Positions 5,057-37,619 of a stretch of DNA of 64,000 nucleotides are shown piece by piece. The translations under genes were made by a program, and so were the position numbers. This stretch comes from Clostridia bacterium (GTDB lineage: Bacteria; Bacillota; Clostridia; RGIG6154): assembly GCA_045593265.1 (NCBI GenBank), contig JAZNWH010000131.1, positions 9,422-73,421 on the forward strand. Direction: 5' to 3'. The notes under the pieces are model-generated. The model had not been told where the DNA came from and searched no databases. It saw nothing but the letters and a program-made list of their open reading frames with translations. Within the stretch, counting starts at the first letter, position 1; each line of letters begins with the position of its first letter.

Positions 5057-6016
5057 GTGAATATGACAGCTTTGAATAAAGATATAGTTTACGATATGAT
5101 AATAGTTGGTGGAGGTCCGGGAGGATACACATCAGCACTTTATGCTGCAAGAGCCGGATTTAATGTTTTGGTTCTTGAAAAATTTTCAGCAGGCGGACAA
5201 ATGGCGTTGACACATCAAATTGACAATTATCCCGGATTTGAGGATGGAATTGACGGATTCTCGCTTGCTGATAAAATGAAAAAACAGGCGGAACGCTTTG
5301 GTGCAAAAAGTGAAAATTCCGAGGTAATTAAAGTTAATCTTACGGTAAATCCAAAAGAAATAGAAACTGCAAAGGGAACATTTTTATCAAAAACAATCGT
5401 ACTCGCAGCAGGGGCAAACCCAAGAGAGCTTGGTGTTGACAAAGAAAGTGAACTTACAGGACGAGGAGTTGCATACTGTGCCTCCTGTGATGGAATGTTT
5501 TACAGAGGCAAAACTGTTGTTGTGGTTGGTGGAGGAAATACTGCTGCTGCAGATGCAATTCTTCTCAGCCGTATTGCAAAAAAGGTTATTATTGTTCATC
5601 GCAGAGATACCTTGAGAGCAACAAGGATATATCATGAGACTTTAATGAATGCAGAAAATGTGGAGTTTAAATGGGATAGTACGGTTACGGAGCTTCTGCA
5701 TGAAGATAAAATAACAGGGGTTAAGATTAAAAATGTCAAAACAGGAGAAGAAAGTATAATTGATTGTGATGGTGTATTTGTAAGCATAGGCAGAAAGCCT
5801 GCAACTGATTTCCTTGGAGATCAGCCTGAATTGGATGAGAATGGATACATCATTGCAGACGAAACGACAAAGACAAGCATCCCTGGTGTGTATGCCGTTG
5901 GCGATATAAGAACTAAACAGCTACGTCAAGTGGTTACTGCTGTTTCGGATGGTGCAATGGCAGTTCATTCGGCAGAAGAATATCTTGCTGAAGAACATAA
6001 AGGAAGTGAAAAATAA
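5057..6016 (+). CDS. trxB: Thioredoxin-disulfide reductase.
   Basis: GGGPGG FAD motif, redox-active CASCDG, second Rossmann motif VVGGGNTA. The start is ambiguous between GTG 5057 and ATG 5063 (AGGAG at 5047-5051). Confidence 0.85.
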   Translation: MNMTALNKDIVYDMIIVGGGPGGYTSALYAARAGFNVLVLEKFSAGGQMALTHQIDNYPGFEDGIDGFSLADKMKKQAERFGAKSENSEVIKVNLTVNPKEIETAKGTFLSKTIVLAAGANPRELGVDKESELTGRGVAYCASCDGMFYRGKTVVVVGGGNTAAADAILLSRIAKKVIIVHRRDTLRATRIYHETLMNAENVEFKWDSTVTELLHEDKITGVKIKNVKTGEESIIDCDGVFVSIGRKPATDFLGDQPELDENGYIIADETTKTSIPGVYAVGDIRTKQLRQVVTAVSDGAMAVHSAEEYLAEEHKGSEK

Positions 6017-6678
6017 TGCAGTATTTAATATCGTTTCTTGAAGGAATTATCACTTTTATATCGCCTTGCTTACTTCCGATGCTACCCATATACATTTCAT
6101 ATTTTGCAGGCGGAGGCGAAAGAACAACCACAAAAACATTGAACTGTGCTGTCGGCTTTGTAACAGGGTTTACTATTGTTTTTGTAATGCTTGGAGCATT
6201 GGCAGGAACAGTTGGAGGATTCCTTCGTGAATACCAGACAACAGTAAATATCATTTCGGGACTGATTGTGATAATTTTCGGACTGAATTTTCTTGGAGTA
6301 TTTAAGCTGAATATCTTCAAAGGAAATCAGCGCTCTGTTAAAACAGATGATATGGGATTTTTCTCTGCAATGCTTTTGGGAATTATCTTTTCCGTAGGCT
6401 GGACTCCTTGTGTGGGGGCATTTCTTGGCTCTGCATTGATGCTGGCATCTCAGCAAGGTCATATATCAGAGGGAATGCTGATGCTGCTTAGTTATTCCTT
6501 AGGACTTGGCATACCATTTATATTAAGTGCGGTGTTGATTGAATACCTCAAATCGGCATTTAACTGGATTAAGAGAAATTACAAAATCATTAACCTTATA
6601 AGTGGTAGTCTGCTTGTTATAATCGGTATTATGATGGCAACAGGCACACTTGGGCAGCTTTTAAATCTGCTCAGTTAG
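6016..6678 (+). CDS. ccdA: Cytochrome c-type biogenesis / thiol-disulfide transporter CcdA (DsbD beta-domain family).
   Basis: Polytopic membrane protein with the two conserved Cys motifs SPCLLP and WTPCVG. The start overlaps the trxB stop. Confidence 0.8.
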   Translation: MQYLISFLEGIITFISPCLLPMLPIYISYFAGGGERTTTKTLNCAVGFVTGFTIVFVMLGALAGTVGGFLREYQTTVNIISGLIVIIFGLNFLGVFKLNIFKGNQRSVKTDDMGFFSAMLLGIIFSVGWTPCVGAFLGSALMLASQQGHISEGMLMLLSYSLGLGIPFILSAVLIEYLKSAFNWIKRNYKIINLISGSLLVIIGIMMATGTLGQLLNLLS

Positions 6679-6861
6679 GAGGTAACGTGAAAGTTCCTTT
6701 CCCGTTACGCCTCCGGCGGATTTAATTGCCCGTGCGAAAATTTCTTTGCATTTGCAAAGAAACGCACATGGGCGTAATAATCTCTTATCATTCCTTACCA
6801 TGCGGATAAGAGAATTTAATTACTATTTGTGTCGATGTATGGCGGCGGAATGGAGATTACT
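6679..6861 (+). ncRNA. Conserved structured leader RNA (copy A), a candidate cis-regulatory element of unknown class lying between ccdA and the resA-like gene.
   Basis: It is 183 nt and about 80% identical to 32999-33191. P1 is ggaggTAACG...CGTTAcgcctcc. P2 is gcccgtgcg...cgcacatgggc, enclosing a variable hairpin. P3 is tctcttatc...gataagaga, with its loop complementary to the tail just 5' of the SD. It ends with ggcggcggaatGGAGattactATG. Confidence 0.45.
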
Positions 6862-7440
6862 ATGAAAAATAAGAAAACACTAATAATACTTATTCTTGTA
6901 TTTGTTGTTTTGCTCGGTGGTGCGTATATCCTGTACTCTCAGCTTGGTGAGTCGCAGACACCCGATCAGCTATCCATGCAACAACAGGAAAATAATGAAT
7001 CAGGAACAGAGAAGCAAGATAGTCAGAAAACATTAGCACCAGATTTCACAGTTTATGATGCTGACGGAAATGAAGTTAAGCTGCATGACTTTATAGGTAA
7101 GCCAATAGTCCTCAATTTCTGGGCAAGCTGGTGTGGTCCCTGTCAGATGGAAATGCCGGACTTTCACGAAAAATATCTCGAGCTTGGTGATACAATAAAC
7201 TTCCTTATGGTAAATATGACTACCGGACGTGAAACCTTAGAGAGTGCAAAGAATTTTATTGCGGAAAAAGAATACACATTCCCGGTGTTTTATGATATAA
7301 AATCTGATGCTGCTGCAGCATACGGAGCATATTCGCTTCCGACAACATATTTTATTGATGATAGAGGCTATGCTATTGCTCAGGCTACAGGTGCTATTGA
7401 TGGTGAAACTCTTCAGCGTGGAATCGATATGATAAAATAA
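6862..7440 (+). CDS. Membrane-anchored thiol-disulfide oxidoreductase, ResA/TlpA-like extracytoplasmic thioredoxin.
   Basis: N-terminal TM helix then a thioredoxin fold with WASWCGPC. The preferred start is ATG 6862 (GGAGA SD 6 nt upstream). The six-frame ORF starting at 6829 is translated leader sequence. Confidence 0.75.
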   Translation: MKNKKTLIILILVFVVLLGGAYILYSQLGESQTPDQLSMQQQENNESGTEKQDSQKTLAPDFTVYDADGNEVKLHDFIGKPIVLNFWASWCGPCQMEMPDFHEKYLELGDTINFLMVNMTTGRETLESAKNFIAEKEYTFPVFYDIKSDAAAAYGAYSLPTTYFIDDRGYAIAQATGAIDGETLQRGIDMIK

Positions 7441-7444
7441 ACTA

Positions 7445-7478
7445 TCCGCCAGGGACAATCCTCGGCGGAATTTTTTCT
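7445..7478 (+). terminator. Rho-independent terminator after the resA-like gene.
   Basis: tccgccagg-gacaat-cctcggcgga followed by TTTTTT. Confidence 0.6.
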
Positions 7479-7566
7479 GCCATAAAATTGTTTGTTTTGT
7501 TGATTGTATAAATCCAGTTTTTGTGATACAATAAATAAAAAAGATAGATTTACGAGGATAACTATT

Positions 7567-8220
7567 ATGGAATTTCAAAGCTACTTTCCAATATGGGATA
7601 AATTAAATAAAGCAGAGCAAGACCGCATCACAGACAACTTGATTACCAGAAAGGTAACAAAAGGAACTGTAATTCATAACGGCAGTATGGAATGCACAGG
7701 ACTTCTTTTGATAAAAACAGGACAGCTTCGTGCTTATATCCTATCTGATGAAGGCAGAGAAATTACAATCTACCGTCTTTTCGACAGGGATATGTGCTTG
7801 TTTTCAGCCTCTTGTATTATGCGTTCCATTCAGTTTGATATAACAATCGAAGCCGAAAAGGATACCGATTTATGGATTATTCCTGCAGAACTTTACCAGA
7901 GTATTATGAAAGAATCTGCACCCGTTGCCAATTACACAAACGAGCTTATGGCAACAAGATTTTCTGATGTAATGTGGCTGATAGAACAGATTATGTGGAA
8001 GAGTCTTGATAAGCGTCTTGCAGCATTTCTTCTTGAGGAATTTTCTATAGAGGGAACAAAAAAACTAAAGATTACTCACGAAACCATTGCTAATCATCTT
8101 GGCTCTCACCGTGAGGTAATGACGAGAATGCTTAAATATTTCCAAAACGAAGGAATGGTTAAGCTCTCCCGTGGTATGATAGAAATTACAGATTCTGAAA
8201 AACTTGGAAGCTTAAGATAA
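7567..8220 (+). CDS. Crp/Fnr-family transcriptional regulator.
   Basis: N-terminal cNMP-binding beta-barrel, C-terminal HTH (ITHETIANHLGSHREVMTRMLKYFQNEGMV). Start chosen at ATG 7567 with GAGGA RBS. The six-frame ORF extends to 7504. Confidence 0.7.
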   Translation: MEFQSYFPIWDKLNKAEQDRITDNLITRKVTKGTVIHNGSMECTGLLLIKTGQLRAYILSDEGREITIYRLFDRDMCLFSASCIMRSIQFDITIEAEKDTDLWIIPAELYQSIMKESAPVANYTNELMATRFSDVMWLIEQIMWKSLDKRLAAFLLEEFSIEGTKKLKITHETIANHLGSHREVMTRMLKYFQNEGMVKLSRGMIEITDSEKLGSLR

Positions 8221-8224
8221 ATGA

Positions 8225-8260
8225 ATGTCCGCCGATGATGAAATCTGGCGGACATTTTAT
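8225..8260. terminator. Hairpin terminator between convergent crp and trxA, likely bidirectional.
   Basis: atgtccgcc...ggcggacat followed by TTTTAT on the + strand. Flanked by T-rich sequence on the minus strand. Confidence 0.6.
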
Positions 8261-8263
8261 GTT

Positions 8264-8569
8264 TTACAGTAATTCGAGAATTGCGTCTTTCGGTTTTGCT
8301 CCCATTGACTGATTTGTGATTTTGCCATCTTTGATAACTACCAGTGTTGGTATGCTCATAATACCGAACTGTGCTGCAAGCTCTGACTGCTCGTCCACAT
8401 TGACCTTGCCAACTTTGATGTCAGGACGTTCCTCGGCAATTTCCTCTACGATAGGTACTACCATGCGGCAAGGTCCGCACCACGGTGCCCAGAAATCCAA
8501 GAGAACAGGTCTGTCTGAATTTAAAACTTCACTTTGAAAATTGTTTTTATTGATATTTATAGCTGCCAT
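8264..8569 (-). CDS. trxA: Thioredoxin.
   Basis: WAPWCGPC active site. 102 aa from the internal Met preceded by AGGAGG at 8-nt spacing. The six-frame ORF extends to 8677 through non-coding leader. Confidence 0.85.
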   Translation of the reverse strand: MAAININKNNFQSEVLNSDRPVLLDFWAPWCGPCRMVVPIVEEIAEERPDIKVGKVNVDEQSELAAQFGIMSIPTLVVIKDGKITNQSMGAKPKDAILELL

Positions 8570-8642: not shown

Positions 8643-8724
8643 TAAAACACATATAATCCCGTAACAAAATATGACATACTTTAAATAAAGAAAAGGGACA
8701 TTCAATTTTGGGCAAAAAATAAGA

Positions 8725-8901
8725 AATGGCTCAAACGCAGTGTTTGAGCCAAAATAAAGCAGGACTCCGAAGAATCGACAGATTTTTTGGGAAGAAGAGG
8801 AACAGTGAAGCAAGTGATTGATTTTTTGTATAGAAAAACAAAGCAAACGAAACTTATTCCGACGAGGCAGGGGCAGAGCGAAAAGAGTCATATCCACAAT
8901 A
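8725..8901. repeat. R1 repeat copy 1, about 177 bp and about 98% identical to 36635-36809. It contains a minus-strand intrinsic terminator hairpin at 8727-8751 and may be an sRNA or UTR module.
   Basis: The two copies differ by one 3-bp indel and one substitution. The hairpin tggctcaaac-gcagt-gtttgagcca is followed on the minus strand by a T-run. Confidence 0.6.
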
Positions 8902-8960
8902 ACATGAAAACTATGAGTAATAAGGTATTTGTAGGCATATTTTTCCATTTATTATTCATT

Positions 8961-9059
8961 ATAGAGGATATATCCGGACACACAACATCGCAGATAACCG
9001 AGATGTACTATGTAAAGAAGGACACCTCAAGGCTGAACGGAATCACAGATGGGTTTGAG
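8961..9059 (+). repeat. R2 repeat copy a, about 99 bp, encoding the peptide IEDISGHTTSQITEMYYVKKDTSRLNGITDGFE. It lies within a possible small ORF at 8904..9152 with an N-terminal hydrophobic segment.
   Basis: Second copy at 10673-10771. The 11 nucleotide differences are all synonymous in this frame. Confidence 0.5.
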
Positions 9060-9077
9060 TTATGGAAATATGCGGCA

Positions 9078-9125
9078 ATAAAAATACACCCTGAGAACAG
9101 AATTTTCGGGGTGTATGATTTTTGT
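9078..9125. terminator. Hairpin with flanking T-runs that serves as a terminator for the minus-strand SGNH gene and for any + strand transcript from the R1/R2 region.
   Basis: atacaccc-tgagaacagaattttc-ggggtgtat, followed by TGATTTTTG on the + strand and TTTTTATT on the minus strand. Confidence 0.45.
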
Positions 9126-9152
9126 ATGCCGTATATCTTCGAAGATGTATGA

Positions 9153-10118
9153 TTAGAGTAATTGTTCTTTAATAATCTTTACAAGATTTTTGCTTACGGT
9201 TTTATGTCCTTTTCTGTCAGGGTGGAGTGGCTCAGGGTTTATCCATCCTGTTGTATTTATGTAGAATACATTGTCGCTGTTTTTACTGTTATATGTGTCT
9301 GTAACCATTTTGATTTCTTCTGCTAAGCAGCCTGAAAAAGGTGTTAATGCTATTATTTGGGATTTTGGGTTTCTTTTTCTTACAAGACACAAAAATTCAA
9401 AATATTTTTTCTTAAATAAATCTTTATCATTTTTTCTGTCATTGGTTCCGTGGTTAATGACAATAATATCTGCATTCTGACTTTCCATTGGAAAACCATC
9501 GCTATAGTATGGGTAAGATTCTTCGGCTGGAGGAACATTTCCTGCTCCGCCTTTGGTTGTACCAAGGCATCCGTAGCCCATAACAACAGGACGGAAATTA
9601 AGGGATTTTGCTGTAAGATATGCATATCCTGCTGTTGAATCGTCCCAATAAACCATATCTCTGCTGTCCTGATAATTTGAATACTTAGTATCTATAGAAA
9701 TACCTTCTGTTATTGAATCACCTATAAATTCTATAACAGGTCTGGTGTCTTTAGGGAGTGGGCAGAATCCTTCGGCTTCTATTGAAACAAGAGAAACTTT
9801 AGCTTCTATAGGATTAAGCCATCTGTTCTGCGTTTCCATAGAGCTTTTCATCGTTACGCAAACTTTGTGTTTTCCTGATTCAGCAGAAATTCTTATAAAT
9901 TTGTCAAGAGTAACTTCAATGTTGGCTCCATTGTCTACATTTATGTAAATATGAGGGTAGGGAATTTGGTTTTCTGATATATCAAATTCGATTACAGCAC
10001 ATTCTCCTTCGTACATAAATTCAAAATAGCTTCCGTTGGCTGTAGATACAGACGCAGCCGTGGTAATGTTCCAGCGGCCTGTATACCTTATTTGGTTGTC
10101 GTCGTGTTTTATAATCAT
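9153..10118 (-). CDS. SGNH/GDSL hydrolase with an N-terminal beta-sandwich domain, similar to carbohydrate esterase family 2 (candidate acetyl-xylan or acetyl-mannan esterase).
   Basis: GDSITEG block I and GTND block III. N-terminal jelly-roll-like domain of about 120 aa. No signal peptide. Confidence 0.55.
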   Translation of the reverse strand: MIIKHDDNQIRYTGRWNITTAASVSTANGSYFEFMYEGECAVIEFDISENQIPYPHIYINVDNGANIEVTLDKFIRISAESGKHKVCVTMKSSMETQNRWLNPIEAKVSLVSIEAEGFCPLPKDTRPVIEFIGDSITEGISIDTKYSNYQDSRDMVYWDDSTAGYAYLTAKSLNFRPVVMGYGCLGTTKGGAGNVPPAEESYPYYSDGFPMESQNADIIVINHGTNDRKNDKDLFKKKYFEFLCLVRKRNPKSQIIALTPFSGCLAEEIKMVTDTYNSKNSDNVFYINTTGWINPEPLHPDRKGHKTVSKNLVKIIKEQLL

Positions 10119-10133
10119 AGTTAGACTCCTTAT

Positions 10134-10742
10134 TTATAAATTTTTTCGTATTTGAGATGGTGAAAGACCACATTCATTTTTAAAAACATTTGAAAAATAT
10201 GCAATATCCTCGAAGCCACATTCAAGTGCTATATCGGAGATTGAAAGATTTGTAGTTTCTAGAAGCTTTCGGGCTTCTTCACAACGGAGTTGACGAAGGT
10301 AATCAAAAACAGTGATTTTGGTATGTTCTTTAAAAAGCTTAGAAAAGTAAAATTTACTGAAGCCGGCAGCGGCCGCGACCTCGTCAAGAGTAAGCTTTTC
10401 CTTATAATGTTCTCTTATATATTTTATTCCTTTTTTAATATTTTCGTTAACATATGTATCTTCTTGTACCGGTCTTTGATAGTTTTTGTATAAATAAGCT
10501 ATCAGTGTAAGTGTTGCGGCACGAAGAGAAACCTCGCATTTTTCAAGATATTCCTTTTCAACAGATTCAAAATAATCAAATAAATGTTCATCTTCAATAC
10601 ATTCGCGAAATTCAAATTTCCCGGGTGCGAGTCCCGATTCGCTTAAAAATTCTTTGCTGACTTTAAAACAATATAGAGGATATATCCGGACATACCACAT
10701 CGCAGATAACTGAGATGTACTATGTAAAGAAAGATACATCAA
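10134..10742 (-). pseudogene. N-terminally truncated AraC-family regulator remnant. Its apparent 5' end runs into R2 repeat copy b.
   Basis: The C-terminal AraC HTH is complete, but only about 90 aa of the sensor domain remain, against about 180 aa in neighbouring AraC paralogs. The first 23 codons are antisense to the R2 repeat. Confidence 0.45.
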
Positions 10743-10771
10743 GATTAAATGGAATCACAGATGGATTCGAG
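10673..10771 (+). repeat. R2 repeat copy b, encoding the same peptide as copy a with only synonymous differences. It lacks the upstream hydrophobic segment and a start codon.
   Basis: Codon-level comparison with 8961-9059 shows 11 synonymous and 0 nonsynonymous differences. A stop follows immediately after FEI. Confidence 0.5.
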
Positions 10772-10905
10772 ATATAATTAACGAACACAGGAACTTTACA
10801 AAAAATTCTAAAAAGTGAGCCAACCTCAAAAAGTTAGACAAAAATCTAAAGATTGAGAGGTCGGCTTATTATATGTTTTAATTCGGAGTTTTTTTATATT
10901 ATCAT

Positions 10906-11730
10906 TTATTTGTGAAGATATCTTTTTCGATATTTTGAAGGAGTTAAACCGATGGACTTTTTAAATATTTTTATATAGTAGTCTGCATTATTGAAGCCTG
11001 AAAGCAGTGCAACGTCCGAAATAGATCTGCTTGAATCTTCAAGATGGGTAATAGAAGCTTCAATGCGTTTTCTGTTGATATATTCTGTAGGTGTAATTTT
11101 CATAAATTCTTTAAAAAGTGTTCTGTAACGGGATTCACTTAATCCTTCTATGTCTGCAAGGTCTTTTATCTTAATATCGAAAGGATATTTTTCATTGATA
11201 TAATTAATTGATTTTGAAAACAGATGCTTGATGTTTGGGGCATGTATATATCTTGAGGTGTCGGCAAGTATTATTGTAAATATAGCACCGGTAACATCGT
11301 TTAAATATTCACCGCCTAAACTAAAAGCTTCAAAAAGTTTTTTAAAATCGTCTACGATTTTGTGATGAATTCCCGGTGTAAAAGGAACATTTACAGGAAT
11401 TTTAAAATGTTCAAGGATGGATTTTGCCTGGTATCCCATAAAATGAAGAGTAAGATAGGTTATGGGAGTTTCCTTATCGGTTATCTGAATATGATATGTA
11501 TTGGGAGGGACGATAAACATATCACCCTCATTCAATCTGTAAGTTTTATCCGTTTTAATAGAGTAAGAGTTTTTTTGTATGTAAAAAAGATGATAGTCAG
11601 TTCTGTTCAGACGGCTTATCCCTTCATATTTTTCGGTGGTTCCTGCACAGGTTATAAGTAATGGTAAATCTGTAGTACAGGTACCCATATAGCTTGCAGG
11701 GTCGGGTATATAATAGTAATGACTTTTCAT
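10906..11730 (-). CDS. AraC-family transcriptional regulator (cupin-like sensor domain plus dual HTH).
   Basis: C-terminal AraC signature (DIKIKDLADIEGLSESRYRTLFKEFMKITPTEYINRKRIEASITHL). 274 aa. Confidence 0.75.
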   Translation of the reverse strand: MKSHYYYIPDPASYMGTCTTDLPLLITCAGTTEKYEGISRLNRTDYHLFYIQKNSYSIKTDKTYRLNEGDMFIVPPNTYHIQITDKETPITYLTLHFMGYQAKSILEHFKIPVNVPFTPGIHHKIVDDFKKLFEAFSLGGEYLNDVTGAIFTIILADTSRYIHAPNIKHLFSKSINYINEKYPFDIKIKDLADIEGLSESRYRTLFKEFMKITPTEYINRKRIEASITHLEDSSRSISDVALLSGFNNADYYIKIFKKSIGLTPSKYRKRYLHK

Positions 11731-11887
11731 ATTCTACCTCGCTTTATAAGTATACGGAATTCAACTTAAACGAAATCTACGATTTAATACTACACTATAA
11801 ACCGAATAAATGCAAGAGTAATTCGTTATTTGGCATTATTTACATAATAAATAGTAATCGAAAAGTGCGGTTTTGTTGAATTGTACA

Positions 11888-11916
11888 TTGAAGAGCAGTT
11901 GCAAAAGTGATAATAT
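11888..11916 (+). promoter_or_regulatory. Candidate sigma-A promoter for the 11972 gene (-35 TTGAAG, 17-nt spacer, -10 TAATAT).
   Basis: Hexamer match and spacing, found by sequence inspection only. Confidence 0.35.
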
Positions 11917-11971
11917 GAAAATGCGAAAGCTATAAAGCAAATTATAAATATAGACAAAAAGGAGAGATTGG

Positions 11972-14900
11972 ATGAAGAATAGAGCAAAAAGAGTTATGAG
12001 CCTTTTGATTTTGCTTACGATGATTGTTTCCTGTTTTACGGCAACAACTACTTTTGCGGCTCAAACTTATGGTGTTGACAATTTAAACAGTAAGAAAGGC
12101 GATTTGTATATTGGCTTTCTTGGTGGCTCAATAACTCAAGGATCAGGTGCGACATTGCTTGAAAACAGATATTCATCATTAATAACTAAAGAATTTTTTG
12201 GCAGTAAATTTGCTCCCGGAAAAGTTACGGAAATTAATGCTGCAGTCGGCGGAACAGGCACCGAGTATGGTCATATGAGAATGTATAAAGATTTAAGACT
12301 CGGAACTGAGGAATCTCCCGATGTTGTTTTTGTTGAATTTGCGGTAAACGACAGTTCTGTAAGTACACCATCACGACTTAAGAACATGGAATCAATTGTA
12401 AGACAACTTATTTCGCAACCTAAAATTCCTGCAATTATCTTTGTTTACACATTTTCGAGCGACTCACGATATATTGATGGTGCTGATGCCAAATCTGTAG
12501 AAGGTGCTATAGAGGATTTTCACAAGATAGCTGAAAACTACGGTATTTATGAAATTAACTTAACTGAATATATCGGTAAGGGAATAGAAGAAGGAAAATG
12601 GCTTTGGAATTCTTCGGGTCAGGAAAATAATTTATCTATAGATACGGCACATCCCAACGATTTCGGTTACAGAGTTTATGCAGATTACATTAAAGAATGT
12701 CTTGAAAAGGATTACGATAAAGCTTTTAGTAAGATAGACCCAATGACCAAGCCTTACGGTAATGACCTTTTCGGTGTTATAGAAGAAATATATTTTGGTG
12801 ATGACAGAGTTGTCAAAAGTAAAGAATGGAAACATAAGAAAAGAGTGGAAGGCACTGAAAACCATTTTTACAAAGGATTCTATACAAATCAGGATTCACT
12901 GGATGCAACCTTTGAGTTTGAATTTGAAGGCCGCGGTGTAGGTATCAATGTAACAAGAGATTATAATAATGCATATGTTAACTGGTCAGTAACCAAAAAA
13001 TCAACCGGAGAAGTTGTTGCTTCGTCAACAATAAGATATCCGTCTACCATTCAGCGCAATGATAACGGAATAGGTTTCTTACTTGCAACAGGACTACCAA
13101 AGGATACTTACATATTTAAGTGTACTCTTTCAGAGAGTGAACATGCAATAAACAGAGGCGGAAACGGAAAATATATGGCTATTGCCAATATTGTTGTAGA
13201 AAAGGATTTACATTCAAATCTTCCGGGACCTGACGGAAATGTAATTGCACCTGATGTAGATTCTTCCGGAGAAACAGAGAATATTCCACAGGAAGAAGTG
13301 AAGAATGAAAGTCTTGCAATATCAGGTGATAAAACAATTCTTTATGTAGCAAAGGATGGTAAGGATACCAACAATGGTTCGATAGATTCACCTTTTGCTA
13401 CTCTTGAAAAGGCGAGAGATACAATACGCTCACTTAAAAAGAGTGGTAATCTCGGTGAAGGTGGAGCTGTTGTTTATATAAGAGGCGGAGAATATTTAGT
13501 ACAGAAAGAATTGTTGCTTACTGAAGAGGATTCGGGAGCTGAAAATGCGCCCATTGTTTACAGAAATTATCCTGATGAGAAAGTTGAGTTTATGGGTGCG
13601 GTCGATATGAATACCGAACTGTTTAAACGTGTAACGGATGAAAGCGTATTAAATAAGATTGTCGATACTAAGGCAAGAGATAAGGTAGTGGCAGTTGATT
13701 TATTTGCATTGGGATACACGGAACTTCCTGAGCAGTATTGGCCTGGTGCATATTCCTACATTCAGAATATGCCGTCAATTACAGGTAGAGAAAAGCCGAC
13801 AGCAATAGCATCAGAACTTATTGTAAACGGTCAGGCACAAACAATTGCAAGGTATCCGAATAATGATTATATGTATATTGAATCTGTTATCGAACCGGGT
13901 GCAATGCCGAGAAACTGGAGTAACGATGTAAAAGGAAGCGACGATTATGTTAAGCCCGAGGACAGAGTACCTACACCTTTTACTTTTACGGTAGCTGATG
14001 AAAGAATTAAATACTGGACAGATGCAAAGGATGCACTTCTTTACGGTTATTTCTATTATTCATGGGCAGATCAGACGGTGCCTTTAGCATCAGTTGATGT
14101 TTCAAAGCATGCAATTACTTCAAAATATCCCAGCGTATACACTGTACTTGCAGATCAGTATTTCTACATATACAATTTGTTAGAGGAAATTGATATTCCG
14201 GGTGAATATTTTGTAGACAGAGAGAACGGTATTTTATACCTTTATCCTCCTGAAAGTGGCATCAGTTCAGCAATATATACTACTCTTGAGGATTATATGT
14301 TTAACCTTCAGGGAGCTGAATATATCAGCATAAAGGGTATTGATATGAGCTATATGAGAAGCGGTGCAATTTTCTCAATGGGTGTTAAAGGTGTTGAAAT
14401 CGCGGATTGTGAAATCAGCTATACAGGTTCTAAAGCGGTAACAGTTTCCGGTTATGACAATAAAGTATATGATTGCTATATTCACGATGTTGAAGGCGGT
14501 GTTGTGCTTGATGGCGGCGACAGAAAAAATCTGATTCCCGGTAATAATTATGTTGAAAACTGCGAATTTGAAAATTGTTCAAGAATTTCAAGTACATATA
14601 TGCCTGCCGTAACATTATCAAACATAGGTAACAGGGTAGTTAATAATAAAATCCATGGTTCACCTCATTTGCTTATTCAGTTCAGCGGTAATGACCATAT
14701 TATAGGATATAATGAAATTTACGATGCCTGTCAGCATACCGATGATGCAGGTGCTATGTATGCGGGTAGAGCAGTTTCACAGCAGGGAAACAGAATAATT
14801 AACAATTATTTCCACGATATTGAATCTGAAGAACTCGGTAATAATGGTGTATCGGGATTATATTTAGATGACTACTGGAGTTCCGCAGATATTTCGGGGA

Positions 14901-36296: not shown

Positions 36297-36430
36297 TCAG
36301 ACTTACAGAATAAAAAAGATAAAACGGATCAAAATATGGTATCCATTTTAAAAACATATTTTCACAAATTAAATATTTCGTATTATCGTGAAACTATAGC
36401 TGCTAATATAATACAGTAAGTATATCGTGA

Positions 36431-36473
36431 AACATCTGCGAGAATTGAAAAATATTCTCGCAGATGTTTTTGC
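36431..36473 (+). terminator. Strong Rho-independent terminator after the epimerase operon.
   Basis: Perfect 15-bp stem aacatctgcgagaat/attctcgcagatgtt with an 8-nt loop, followed by TTTTGC. Confidence 0.7.
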
Positions 36474-36634
36474 ATAACGAAACTGACAGAATTGCTAAAA
36501 ATAAAATGATGCTTTTTGATGATGTAACAGACGGAATGGTTAAGAATGTATGCAGCCAGACGCGAAATTGATACTTATTTTGGGCAATTTTAATTGACAC
36601 AGAGGACCACGAACCTTAGAATTAACAACACAAA

Positions 36635-36809
36635 AAATGGCTCAAACGCAGTGTTTGAGCCAAAATAAAGCAGGACTCCGAAGAATCGACAGATTTTTTG
36701 GGAAGAAGAACAGTGAAGCAAGTGATTGATTTTTTGTATAGAAAAACAAAGCAAACGAAACTTATTCCGACGAGGCAGGGGCAGAGCGAAAAGAGTCATA
36801 TACACAATA
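36635..36809. repeat. R1 repeat copy 2. Its minus-strand terminator hairpin at 36638-36662 lies just downstream of the minus-strand AraC gene.
   Basis: Near-identical to 8725-8901. The hairpin is followed by TTTTTTGTG on the minus strand. Confidence 0.6.
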
Positions 36810-36830: not shown

Positions 36831-37619
36831 CTATAAATTATGAATTTTCAGTTTGTATTCGGTGGGGGATGTACGCATTATTTTTTTAAACTGTTTGCTG
36901 AAATGATATTCGTCGTAAAATCCCAGGTTAAAAGCCACTTCCTTTACGGTAATTTCAGGAAAATTTTTGAAGTAGGTAATTGCTTCGGTTATTTTAAAAT
37001 CGAGCATATATTGGTGTATTGTTATGCCGAAGGCTTCTTTGAATTTTGTTTCGGCGGTTTTGACAGAAACATTACATTTTTTTGCAAGATAAGCGTTTGA
37101 GAAAAACTTTTCTGGACTGTTATGTACGATTTTTTTAATACGTAGCGGGATATTGTTTTCCGTATCTTCTACAGGTTGACACAGCTCATATAAAAGCAGA
37201 TTAAAGAAAATATCTGCTTTTTTTTGTTTGCCCTGAAGATAGCAGTTTACAATTTCTGAGAAGTATTTTTTAATATCAGAATTTGATGAAACATCGCAAA
37301 GGCTGTTTATGCATAAACCGTCTTGAGGAATGTTACTTGTAAAATCATTTTCGCCTTTTACGTGAAAATACATTGTTTTGGTGTTTGGTAGGCAAGGTGA
37401 AATTCCAAAGTGAGTATTGTTTGCGCTTAAAATTAAAATATTATCTTTTTTTGCTGTGAATTCTTCGTTATTTTGACCGAATTTCCATTCTCCCTGAAGT
37501 ATGTATATAAAGTCGTGGTCTTTCATTTTACGTTTGGGATGCACAAAGGGAGATGCGTAGAAATTTATATTCGCTTCCGTTATTGTGTGTGGAGTATTTT
37601 CCGAAAATACAGTAAACAT
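36831..37619 (-). CDS. AraC-family transcriptional regulator, divergent from the glycyl-radical-enzyme operon.
   Basis: Cupin N-domain plus AraC HTH (ITVKEVAFNLGFYDEYHFSKQFKKIMRTSPTEYK). Confidence 0.75.
   Translation of the reverse strand: MFTVFSENTPHTITEANINFYASPFVHPKRKMKDHDFIYILQGEWKFGQNNEEFTAKKDNILILSANNTHFGISPCLPNTKTMYFHVKGENDFTSNIPQDGLCINSLCDVSSNSDIKKYFSEIVNCYLQGKQKKADIFFNLLLYELCQPVEDTENNIPLRIKKIVHNSPEKFFSNAYLAKKCNVSVKTAETKFKEAFGITIHQYMLDFKITEAITYFKNFPEITVKEVAFNLGFYDEYHFSKQFKKIMRTSPTEYKLKIHNL

Follow-up and report, generated by a model that had tools for sequence, protein, structure and literature searches.

Integrative elements have been described as accreting in tandem and then decaying (PMC5704250), and the CIMEs and decayed ICEs and IMEs of the ICESt1 type (PMC5704250) are the described elements with which the locus analysed here can best be compared. 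The integrase family from which this locus derives integrates repeatedly at one site and forms same-orientation arrays, its integrase genes and attachment arms have been lost or truncated, and cargo has been left between the relics. Likewise, the window (the whole 64-kb stretch of DNA that was analysed) holds several co-oriented relics of one element family separated by cargo. Unlike those described systems, the elements examined showed no conjugation or mobilisation genes, their cargo consisting of Gabija-like genes, a methylase and regulators; the window also lacks the tRNA target, and its relics are scrambled. Integrase pseudogene fragments in decayed integrative islands are a well-known kind of locus, and only this particular family appears to be undescribed.

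A second point of reference is the integrase of Tn1549 (PDB 6EN0/6EMY/6EMZ). The relatives of the window sequence share with it a SAM-like N-terminus, a PF00589 domain and a box II in which HxLRH...GH-x8-Y(Y) is aligned, but the window itself has only the tail (the last 34 residues, with the last His and Tyr), and the relatives target tRNA-Trp and sit in minimal islands, not in conjugative transposons. The ssrA islands of Dehalococcoides, an example of tRNA- or tmRNA-gene islands that contain degenerate integrase fragments, are reported to be mobilised site-specifically at a single-copy RNA gene (PMC3146451). They resemble the present islands in using the 3' end of a small-RNA gene as their target, but differ from them in integrase lineage, host group and the target itself.

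The repeat pair and the peptide it encodes

The window contains a direct repeat (8957-9063 and 10669-10775) of 87% identity, and the same 33 residues, IEDISGHTTSQITEMYYVKKDTSRLNGITDGFE, are read from both copies in the + frame starting at 8961 and 10673, as a previous, sequence-only reading of this DNA had reported. That reading counted 11 nucleotide differences between the copies, called a and b here, and found all of them synonymous. The second part stands, but the count is 12, distributed over 11 codons, of which the CTG/TTA codon carries two. Nei-Gojobori counting gives Sd=12 and Nd=0 for S=21 and N=78 sites, with pS=0.57. Random single changes in the repeat sequence are synonymous in ~21-25% of cases, which assigns to 12/12 a p value of ~7e-9 to 5e-8, and none of 200,000 simulations (0/200,000) produced such a result. 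The codon-periodic pattern of the repeat pair is real, and the synonymous divergence of the two copies is large, so that the duplication is not recent. Among the other reading frames, none is both open and conserved in the two copies. Immediately after the common peptide, copy a has TTA (Leu) and copy b has ATA (Ile). Copy b then ends at a TAA (10775-10777) that occupies the stop position of intact integrase genes, whereas copy a reads through. At their 5' ends, the copies share a stretch of 21 nt with perfect identity (Table 1), which has no further occurrence in the 64-kb window.

Table 1. Positions of the relics and neighbouring features in the window
Feature	Position	Strand	Remarks
R1 copy 1	8716..8901	+	Putative integrase-downstream attachment-site arm relic; contains the 13-nt tRNA-Trp 3' end (GGCAGGGGCAGAG, 8866-8878); ends CACAATA
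Spacer (58 nt)	8902..8959	+	Adjoins copy a on its 5' side; conserved in L001 and L093; in no integrase locus
82-aa ORF	8904..9152	+	ATG 8904, stop 9150-9152; judged not a gene
21-nt edge, first copy	8960..8980	+	Common 5' edge of both remnants; found in L001 and L093
Copy a (F_a)	8961..9062	+	Orphan a-type integrase 3' remnant, last 34 codons (IEDISGH...GFEL); native stop lost, TGG at 9063-9065
Native 3' flank of the a-type integrase	9063..9130	+	With intrinsic terminator 9084-9116; colinear with the post-stop sequence in L034, L044 and L019
GDSL/SGNH hydrolase gene, cargo between the remnants	9153..10118	-	PF13472, 1.7e-10; L095 version 97% identical
AraC-family regulator, 5'-truncated	10134..10673	-	Only the HTH half left; PF00165 + PF12833 at residues 106-200
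21-nt edge, second copy	10672..10692	+	AraC junction at 10673|10674, TA microhomology
Copy b (F_b)	10673..10777	+	Orphan b-type integrase 3' remnant, last 34 codons + native stop TAA; no start codon
R1 copy 2	36430..36809	+	Longer version of the arm, not preceded by an integrase gene; colinear with L034 10439-10597 and with L001

The identity of the peptide was established by protein comparison. The peptide, extended by a few flanking residues, matched 11 short proteins, one of which was named an integrase and one flagged PF00589. When a longer match served as the query, 73 proteins were found, the majority flagged PF00589, that carry HxLRHTFA...LGHTTSQITEMYYVKKD...GFEI, the box II known from tyrosine recombinases. 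All 73 are at most 112 aa long, and the word-indexed search with a short query seems to favour short entries. These lengths, together with an in-frame TAA in one integrase gene (locus L007, described below), had raised the idea of a recoding signal or a split gene; this was rejected, as most of the relatives' loci that were fetched show ordinary uninterrupted ORFs of roughly 400-450 codons, and the L007 gene was taken to be a pseudogene.

The 35-aa peptide is 82-91% identical to residues 371-404 of full-length proteins of 404 aa that are PF00589-positive. The integrase of locus L034 (404 aa) matches PF00589 at 2.7e-19 and has an N-terminal SAM-like domain; its closest solved relative is the Tn1549 integrase (6EN0), with which the HxLRH...GH...YY / HxxR positions are aligned. 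A tblastn comparison of three full-length integrases (L034, L014 and L007) with the 64-kb window matched only residues 371-404, at the two copies, and found the rest of the integrase, including its 5' part, absent from the window. Pfam gave no match for the 35-aa peptide, which is too short, and PHROGs returned nothing usable. On the strength of these alignments, both segments are the orphan last 34 codons of tyrosine integrase genes, with the GH...Y motif that includes the catalytic tyrosine. They retain the last catalytic His and the Tyr nucleophile (GH, YY) but lack the Arg, Lys and HxxR parts, and therefore cannot be an enzyme. The sequence-only reading had offered, as an alternative to a small protein gene, that a larger gene family was leaving fragments here; this alternative proves correct, the family being that of a tyrosine integrase.

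The parent integrase family and its tRNA-Trp islands

A scan of one genome per species returned more than 457 relatives of the integrase, often in several copies per MAG, from Ruminococcus, Acutalibacteraceae, Oscillospiraceae and other Clostridia MAGs of rumen and gut. In 20 loci, a convergent tRNA-Trp(CCA) gene lies 170-1050 nt downstream of the integrase. In many other loci, what comes after the integrase is a piece of the tRNA-Trp 3' part, either ~45 nt reaching to the anticodon loop or no more than ~18 nt, with non-tRNA sequence beyond it. Partial tRNA-Trp junctions of this kind are the attP-like junctions to be expected inside tandem arrays. Same-strand pairs of full-length integrases ~5-8 kb apart are present in L018, L036, L067 and L070. 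Integrase fragments in the database begin at many different points of the protein, and 5'-truncated remnants are therefore common. The integrases of the parent family belong to small integrative islands of Oscillospirales/Ruminococcaceae that insert at the 3' end of tRNA-Trp(CCA); these islands accumulate in same-orientation tandem arrays and later decay. Abundant, apparently unnamed minimal tRNA-Trp islands are thereby documented in rumen and gut Oscillospirales, at least one of them with Gabija-like defence genes and another with a DNA methylase.

Several of these loci show further features of the family. Between the two tandem integrases of L036 (10907-14987) lies a Gabija-like pair, AAA_15 + OLD-TOPRIM followed by a UvrD helicase, and minimal islands of this type, ~6 kb in size, carry defence cargo plus the integrase and nothing else. 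In L007 (9143-10339; also in L008-L011), the integrase has an in-frame TAA, so that 250 aa, the stop and 112 aa share one frame. The identical 112-aa product is found on at least five contigs, in at least two different upstream contexts, and this integrase may be a pseudogene copy that has recently spread or a shared assembly or strain variant. In L003-L005, a gene for an IS200/IS605-type Y1 transposase (9580-10002, opposite strand) adjoins the start of a 112-aa integrase fragment, and the insertion sequence appears to have cut the integrase. On either side of the tRNA-derived core, the motif (T)TGATGCT(A) is repeated in L052 (7400-7440), in L034 (10510-10660) and in the window (36497-36590); these repeats are probably arm-type binding sites of the integrase.

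Origin of the synonymous differences and history of the pair

Across 51 distinct full-length integrase genes, the 33 codons show a pN/pS of 0.127 with a pS of 0.83. Purifying selection on the working enzyme has kept the C-terminal peptide almost invariant in the family, and exactly the 28-aa GH...GFE peptide of the window is encoded by the intact integrase genes of L014, L034 and L042, which belong to other genomes. Over 84 nt, copy a differs from L034 at 7 positions and copy b from L014 at 6, while the two copies differ from each other at 12. Since for each copy there is a distinct intact gene to which it is nearer than to the other copy, the synonymous signature is inherited and does not reflect selection acting in the window. 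Copies a and b descend from two different integrase alleles, an 'a-type' and a 'b-type', and relics cut from two constrained genes consequently differ at synonymous sites only.

The corresponding copies on two other contigs point the same way. Relative to copy b, the copy of L001 shows 5 nonsynonymous and 4 synonymous codon changes, while that of L093 has a Gly to Arg change in the GH motif, which brings the two together to 6 nonsynonymous versus 4 synonymous codon changes; by this count, the corresponding copies elsewhere decay neutrally. The sequence-only reading took the pattern as a sign of purifying selection on the encoded peptide. Such selection is indeed seen in the parent integrase genes, but not in place, and nonsynonymous-dominated change in other copies, which that reading had itself named as speaking against it, is what L001 and L093 present. 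The two segments are thus very probably non-functional 3' remnants of two integrase alleles from decaying tRNA-Trp islands, with a synonymous signature that was inherited. A caution of more general use is that a perfect dN=0 between two short repeats is no proof of a gene, as fragments of diverged constrained genes carry the signature along with them.

The local history of the pair can be approached through L093 and L095, two short contigs from one metagenome sample (SRR12277013) whose strains may differ. L093 is 99.7% identical to window 10669-12994 and then runs directly into the spacer and the core relic found ahead of copy a in the window; its single remnant is of the b-type, and the segment with the GDSL and truncated AraC genes is missing from it. 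The window amounts to this one-copy arrangement with 1,712 bp added. To the left of copy a, identity between the window and L093 is only ~92%, so that L093 is no clean 'before' state and the region is a mosaic of differing histories. L095 is 97.3% identical to window 9007-10673 and comprises the 3' part of the a-type remnant, the flank with its terminator, the GDSL gene and the AraC gene. Its AraC frame continues in-frame past 10673, uncut at the junction, which fixes the boundary between truncated AraC gene and remnant given in Table 1. The AraC ORF as listed for the window extends to 10742 solely as the antisense of copy b. The earlier remark that copy b has no start codon holds, an in-frame TAA at 10664-10666 preceding the copy. 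The missing AraC N-terminus was also sought past R1 copy 2, which would have made 10.7-36.8 kb one insertion; this was discarded, the gene at 36831-37619 being a complete, unrelated AraC. Exact-protein look-ups for the GDSL protein and the truncated AraC gave no match, and that for the thioredoxin encoded upstream led to a 629-nt contig that ends short of the informative region. Scans for the junction pattern found nothing in genome_contigs or viral contigs, and the junction matches in JGI metagenomes (L012 and L013) proved to be chance, lying inside a glycosyltransferase.

The common 5' edge of the remnants, TATAGAGGATATATCCGGACA, departs from native integrase sequence: the first 14 of its 21 bases differ, and its part TAGAGGATATATCC bears only a loose resemblance to GTAGCAGATATACTC (VADIL) of the integrase. 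None of ~90 integrase loci contains the 21-nt edge, and no sampled full-length gene has the IEDIS edge sequence. The 14-mer of the edge occurs only in L001 and L093, besides chance matches in the unrelated L012 and L013.

In the order and by the mechanism of recombination that we infer, a b-type relic joined to the 58-nt spacer would already have been resident, as it is in the one-copy contigs L093 and L001. Recombination anchored in integrase homology would then have brought in an a-type integrase 3' end with its terminator, the GDSL gene and part of the AraC gene. The far end of the incoming segment would have been joined illegitimately to the resident relic, at the relic's 5' edge and through the TA microhomology, an event that would both truncate AraC and duplicate the 21 nt. 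Against such a one-event history stands the fact that the two remnants have the same integrase coordinate as their starting point and share there 21 identical bases that depart from native sequence. Two independent truncations would not produce this, and in the one-event model the join must fall no more than 1-2 nt from where the older truncation ended, a coincidence whose probability we estimate at a few percent. A single edge-duplicating event and a duplicated relic followed by gene conversion would both fit the common 21-nt edge. The 64-kb window contains no intact integrase or tRNA-Trp gene, so that the donor allele is not seen whole.

The gene conversion history is possible but, in our judgement, unlikely. 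In it, an already truncated remnant was duplicated in place, and one or both copies were then overwritten from intact integrase paralogues. Conversion tracts start only where homology starts, and the non-native edge would therefore have stayed identical while the rest became filtered by selection; consistently, the edge is perfectly identical and divergence begins directly after it. L001, although in the position of copy a, has b-type sequence, and the integrase family is multi-copy within genomes. The two R1 copies, moreover, are 97% identical over 181 nt (8721-8901 versus 36632-36809), which suggests local homogenisation. However, copy a is followed by ~70 nt of genuine integrase 3' flank with the terminator, which copy b lacks, so that one side would have been exchanged together with new flanking DNA, and no donor paralogue is visible in the window.

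The architecture of the window is found independently in L079, where a full integrase is followed by a low-GC cassette and then by a 3' fragment, an arm and a tRNA half. The cassette (10440-12967) encodes an uncharacterised 484-aa protein and a Dam (D12-class adenine) methylase, and is flanked by ~270-nt imperfect repeats, 80-82% identical; either repeat is more similar to integrases of other elements than to its partner. One could imagine that the conserved integrase 3' end is a reusable recombination anchor that captures foreign cassettes directly downstream of the integrase and leaves them flanked by integrase 3' repeats, via homology-guided template switching or via the integrase acting on a secondary site at the 21-nt edge, an extension that we regard as improbable. 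The candidate captured cassettes would be GDSL plus truncated AraC in the window and ParB-like plus Dam in L079. If true, this would be an integron-like route of cargo acquisition for minimal tRNA-Trp islands in gut Clostridia.

Improbable, too, is the view that recombination prefers the 5' edge itself, which might for instance serve the integrase or another site-specific enzyme as a secondary attachment site, and that the 1.7-kb unit was inserted there as a cassette-like circle. The 1,712-bp unit (remnant + GDSL + truncated AraC) is indeed flanked by 21-bp perfect direct repeats, L093 resembles an empty site, and the cassette of L079 is flanked by integrase 3' repeats. However, the cassette of the window ends inside AraC, a gene uncut there in L095, and this end looks accidental and not like a dedicated boundary. 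The repeats of L079 have their boundaries at different integrase coordinates, and the scattered starting points of the database fragments likewise tell against a fixed site. The 21-mer, absent as it is from the sampled integrase loci, is also unlike the tRNA-Trp core. An apparent 'insertion hotspot' in L086 contains only a putative IS110-type transposase, and a general hotspot downstream of the integrase was rejected on this ground. The L086 ORF in question (10447-11565), which resembles an IS110-family transposase, lies between the integrase 3' flank and the attachment arm.

In SSV1-type archaeal integrases, attP lies inside the integrase gene, and integration therefore splits the gene. Such splitting would yield orphan integrase fragments with a fixed boundary at the ends of the element, as in the window. 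A split integrase of this type, or an element that targets integrase genes, was rejected for the present family: the core is the 3' end of tRNA-Trp, 170-1050 nt downstream of the intact gene, the 21-nt/IEDIS edge is in no sampled full-length gene, and the window has no 5' integrase part.

The 82-aa ORF that runs through copy a, which the sequence-only reading described as a possible protein with a hydrophobic N-terminus ending at 9152, does exist as an open frame, but is judged not to be a gene. Its 'hydrophobic N-terminus' is the translated 58-nt spacer, which is non-integrase DNA. There is no purine-rich Shine-Dalgarno sequence upstream of ATG 8904 or of ATG 8913, and a terminator scan places the intrinsic terminator inside the ORF, ahead of the stop at 9150. 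The tail past GFEL was created by the change of a TGA (in L095) to TGG (in the window) and runs through the integrase terminator. The corresponding ORF counts 82 aa in the window, 57 aa in L093 and 50 aa in L001, with a stop position that differs in all three; in L001, the first ATG is lost and the frame stops at the native integrase stop. Neither start nor stop is conserved in L001, L093 or L095, and the non-integrase parts of the ORF have no Pfam match and no meaningful PHROG match. The spacer itself is better conserved than R1. Compared with 92 loci, it shows similarity to L001 only, and it lacks the GATGCT arm-type repeats of L052; its interpretation as a P' arm or as a 5' piece of the integrase was rejected on these grounds. 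The title reading of the earlier analysis, a hidden small membrane protein gene that was partly duplicated and kept by purifying selection in place, is consequently abandoned as highly improbable: dN=0 against 12 synonymous differences, a frame that stays open across the spacer in the window as well as in L001 and L093, and the good conservation of that spacer all speak for it, but they are outweighed by a peptide that is an integrase C-terminus, a copy b devoid of a start codon, the nonsynonymous excess in the corresponding copies, the unconserved limits of the ORF and its internal terminator.

Arm relics and the wider window

R1 corresponds to what normally separates the integrase stop from the tRNA, and has a terminator hairpin. 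The four relics of the window, i.e., two integrase 3' remnants and two arms, are all on the + strand with cargo between them, yet their order is scrambled compared to intact elements: R1 is upstream of the integrase remnant, and the core relic is just 13 nt of the tRNA end. Together, they bracket the segment with the GDSL and truncated AraC genes as well as 25 kb in which very large ORFs cluster with AraC regulators. No tRNA, Rfam match or compositional break was detected in the 64-kb window. Between the two R1 copies lie ~28 kb, with the remnants and ORFs of 1295, 2109, 1357 and 897 aa accompanied by AraC regulators, and this stretch may represent a relic island. In this way, a large cluster of carbohydrate-active enzymes with AraC regulators (window 8.7-36.8 kb) is placed among integrative-island relics, which bears on how a polysaccharide-utilisation locus was acquired.

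Just upstream of the relics, the window carries a redox cluster (5057-8569) with a thioredoxin gene, assigned by its Pfam families, at 8264-8569 on the - strand. From their translations, we take the other genes of this cluster to encode proteins of 319 aa (probably a thioredoxin reductase), 220 aa (a CcdA-like membrane protein), 203 aa (a TlpA-like thiol-disulfide oxidoreductase) and 238 aa (a Crp/Fnr-like regulator). A related contig, L094, departs from the window at 8695.
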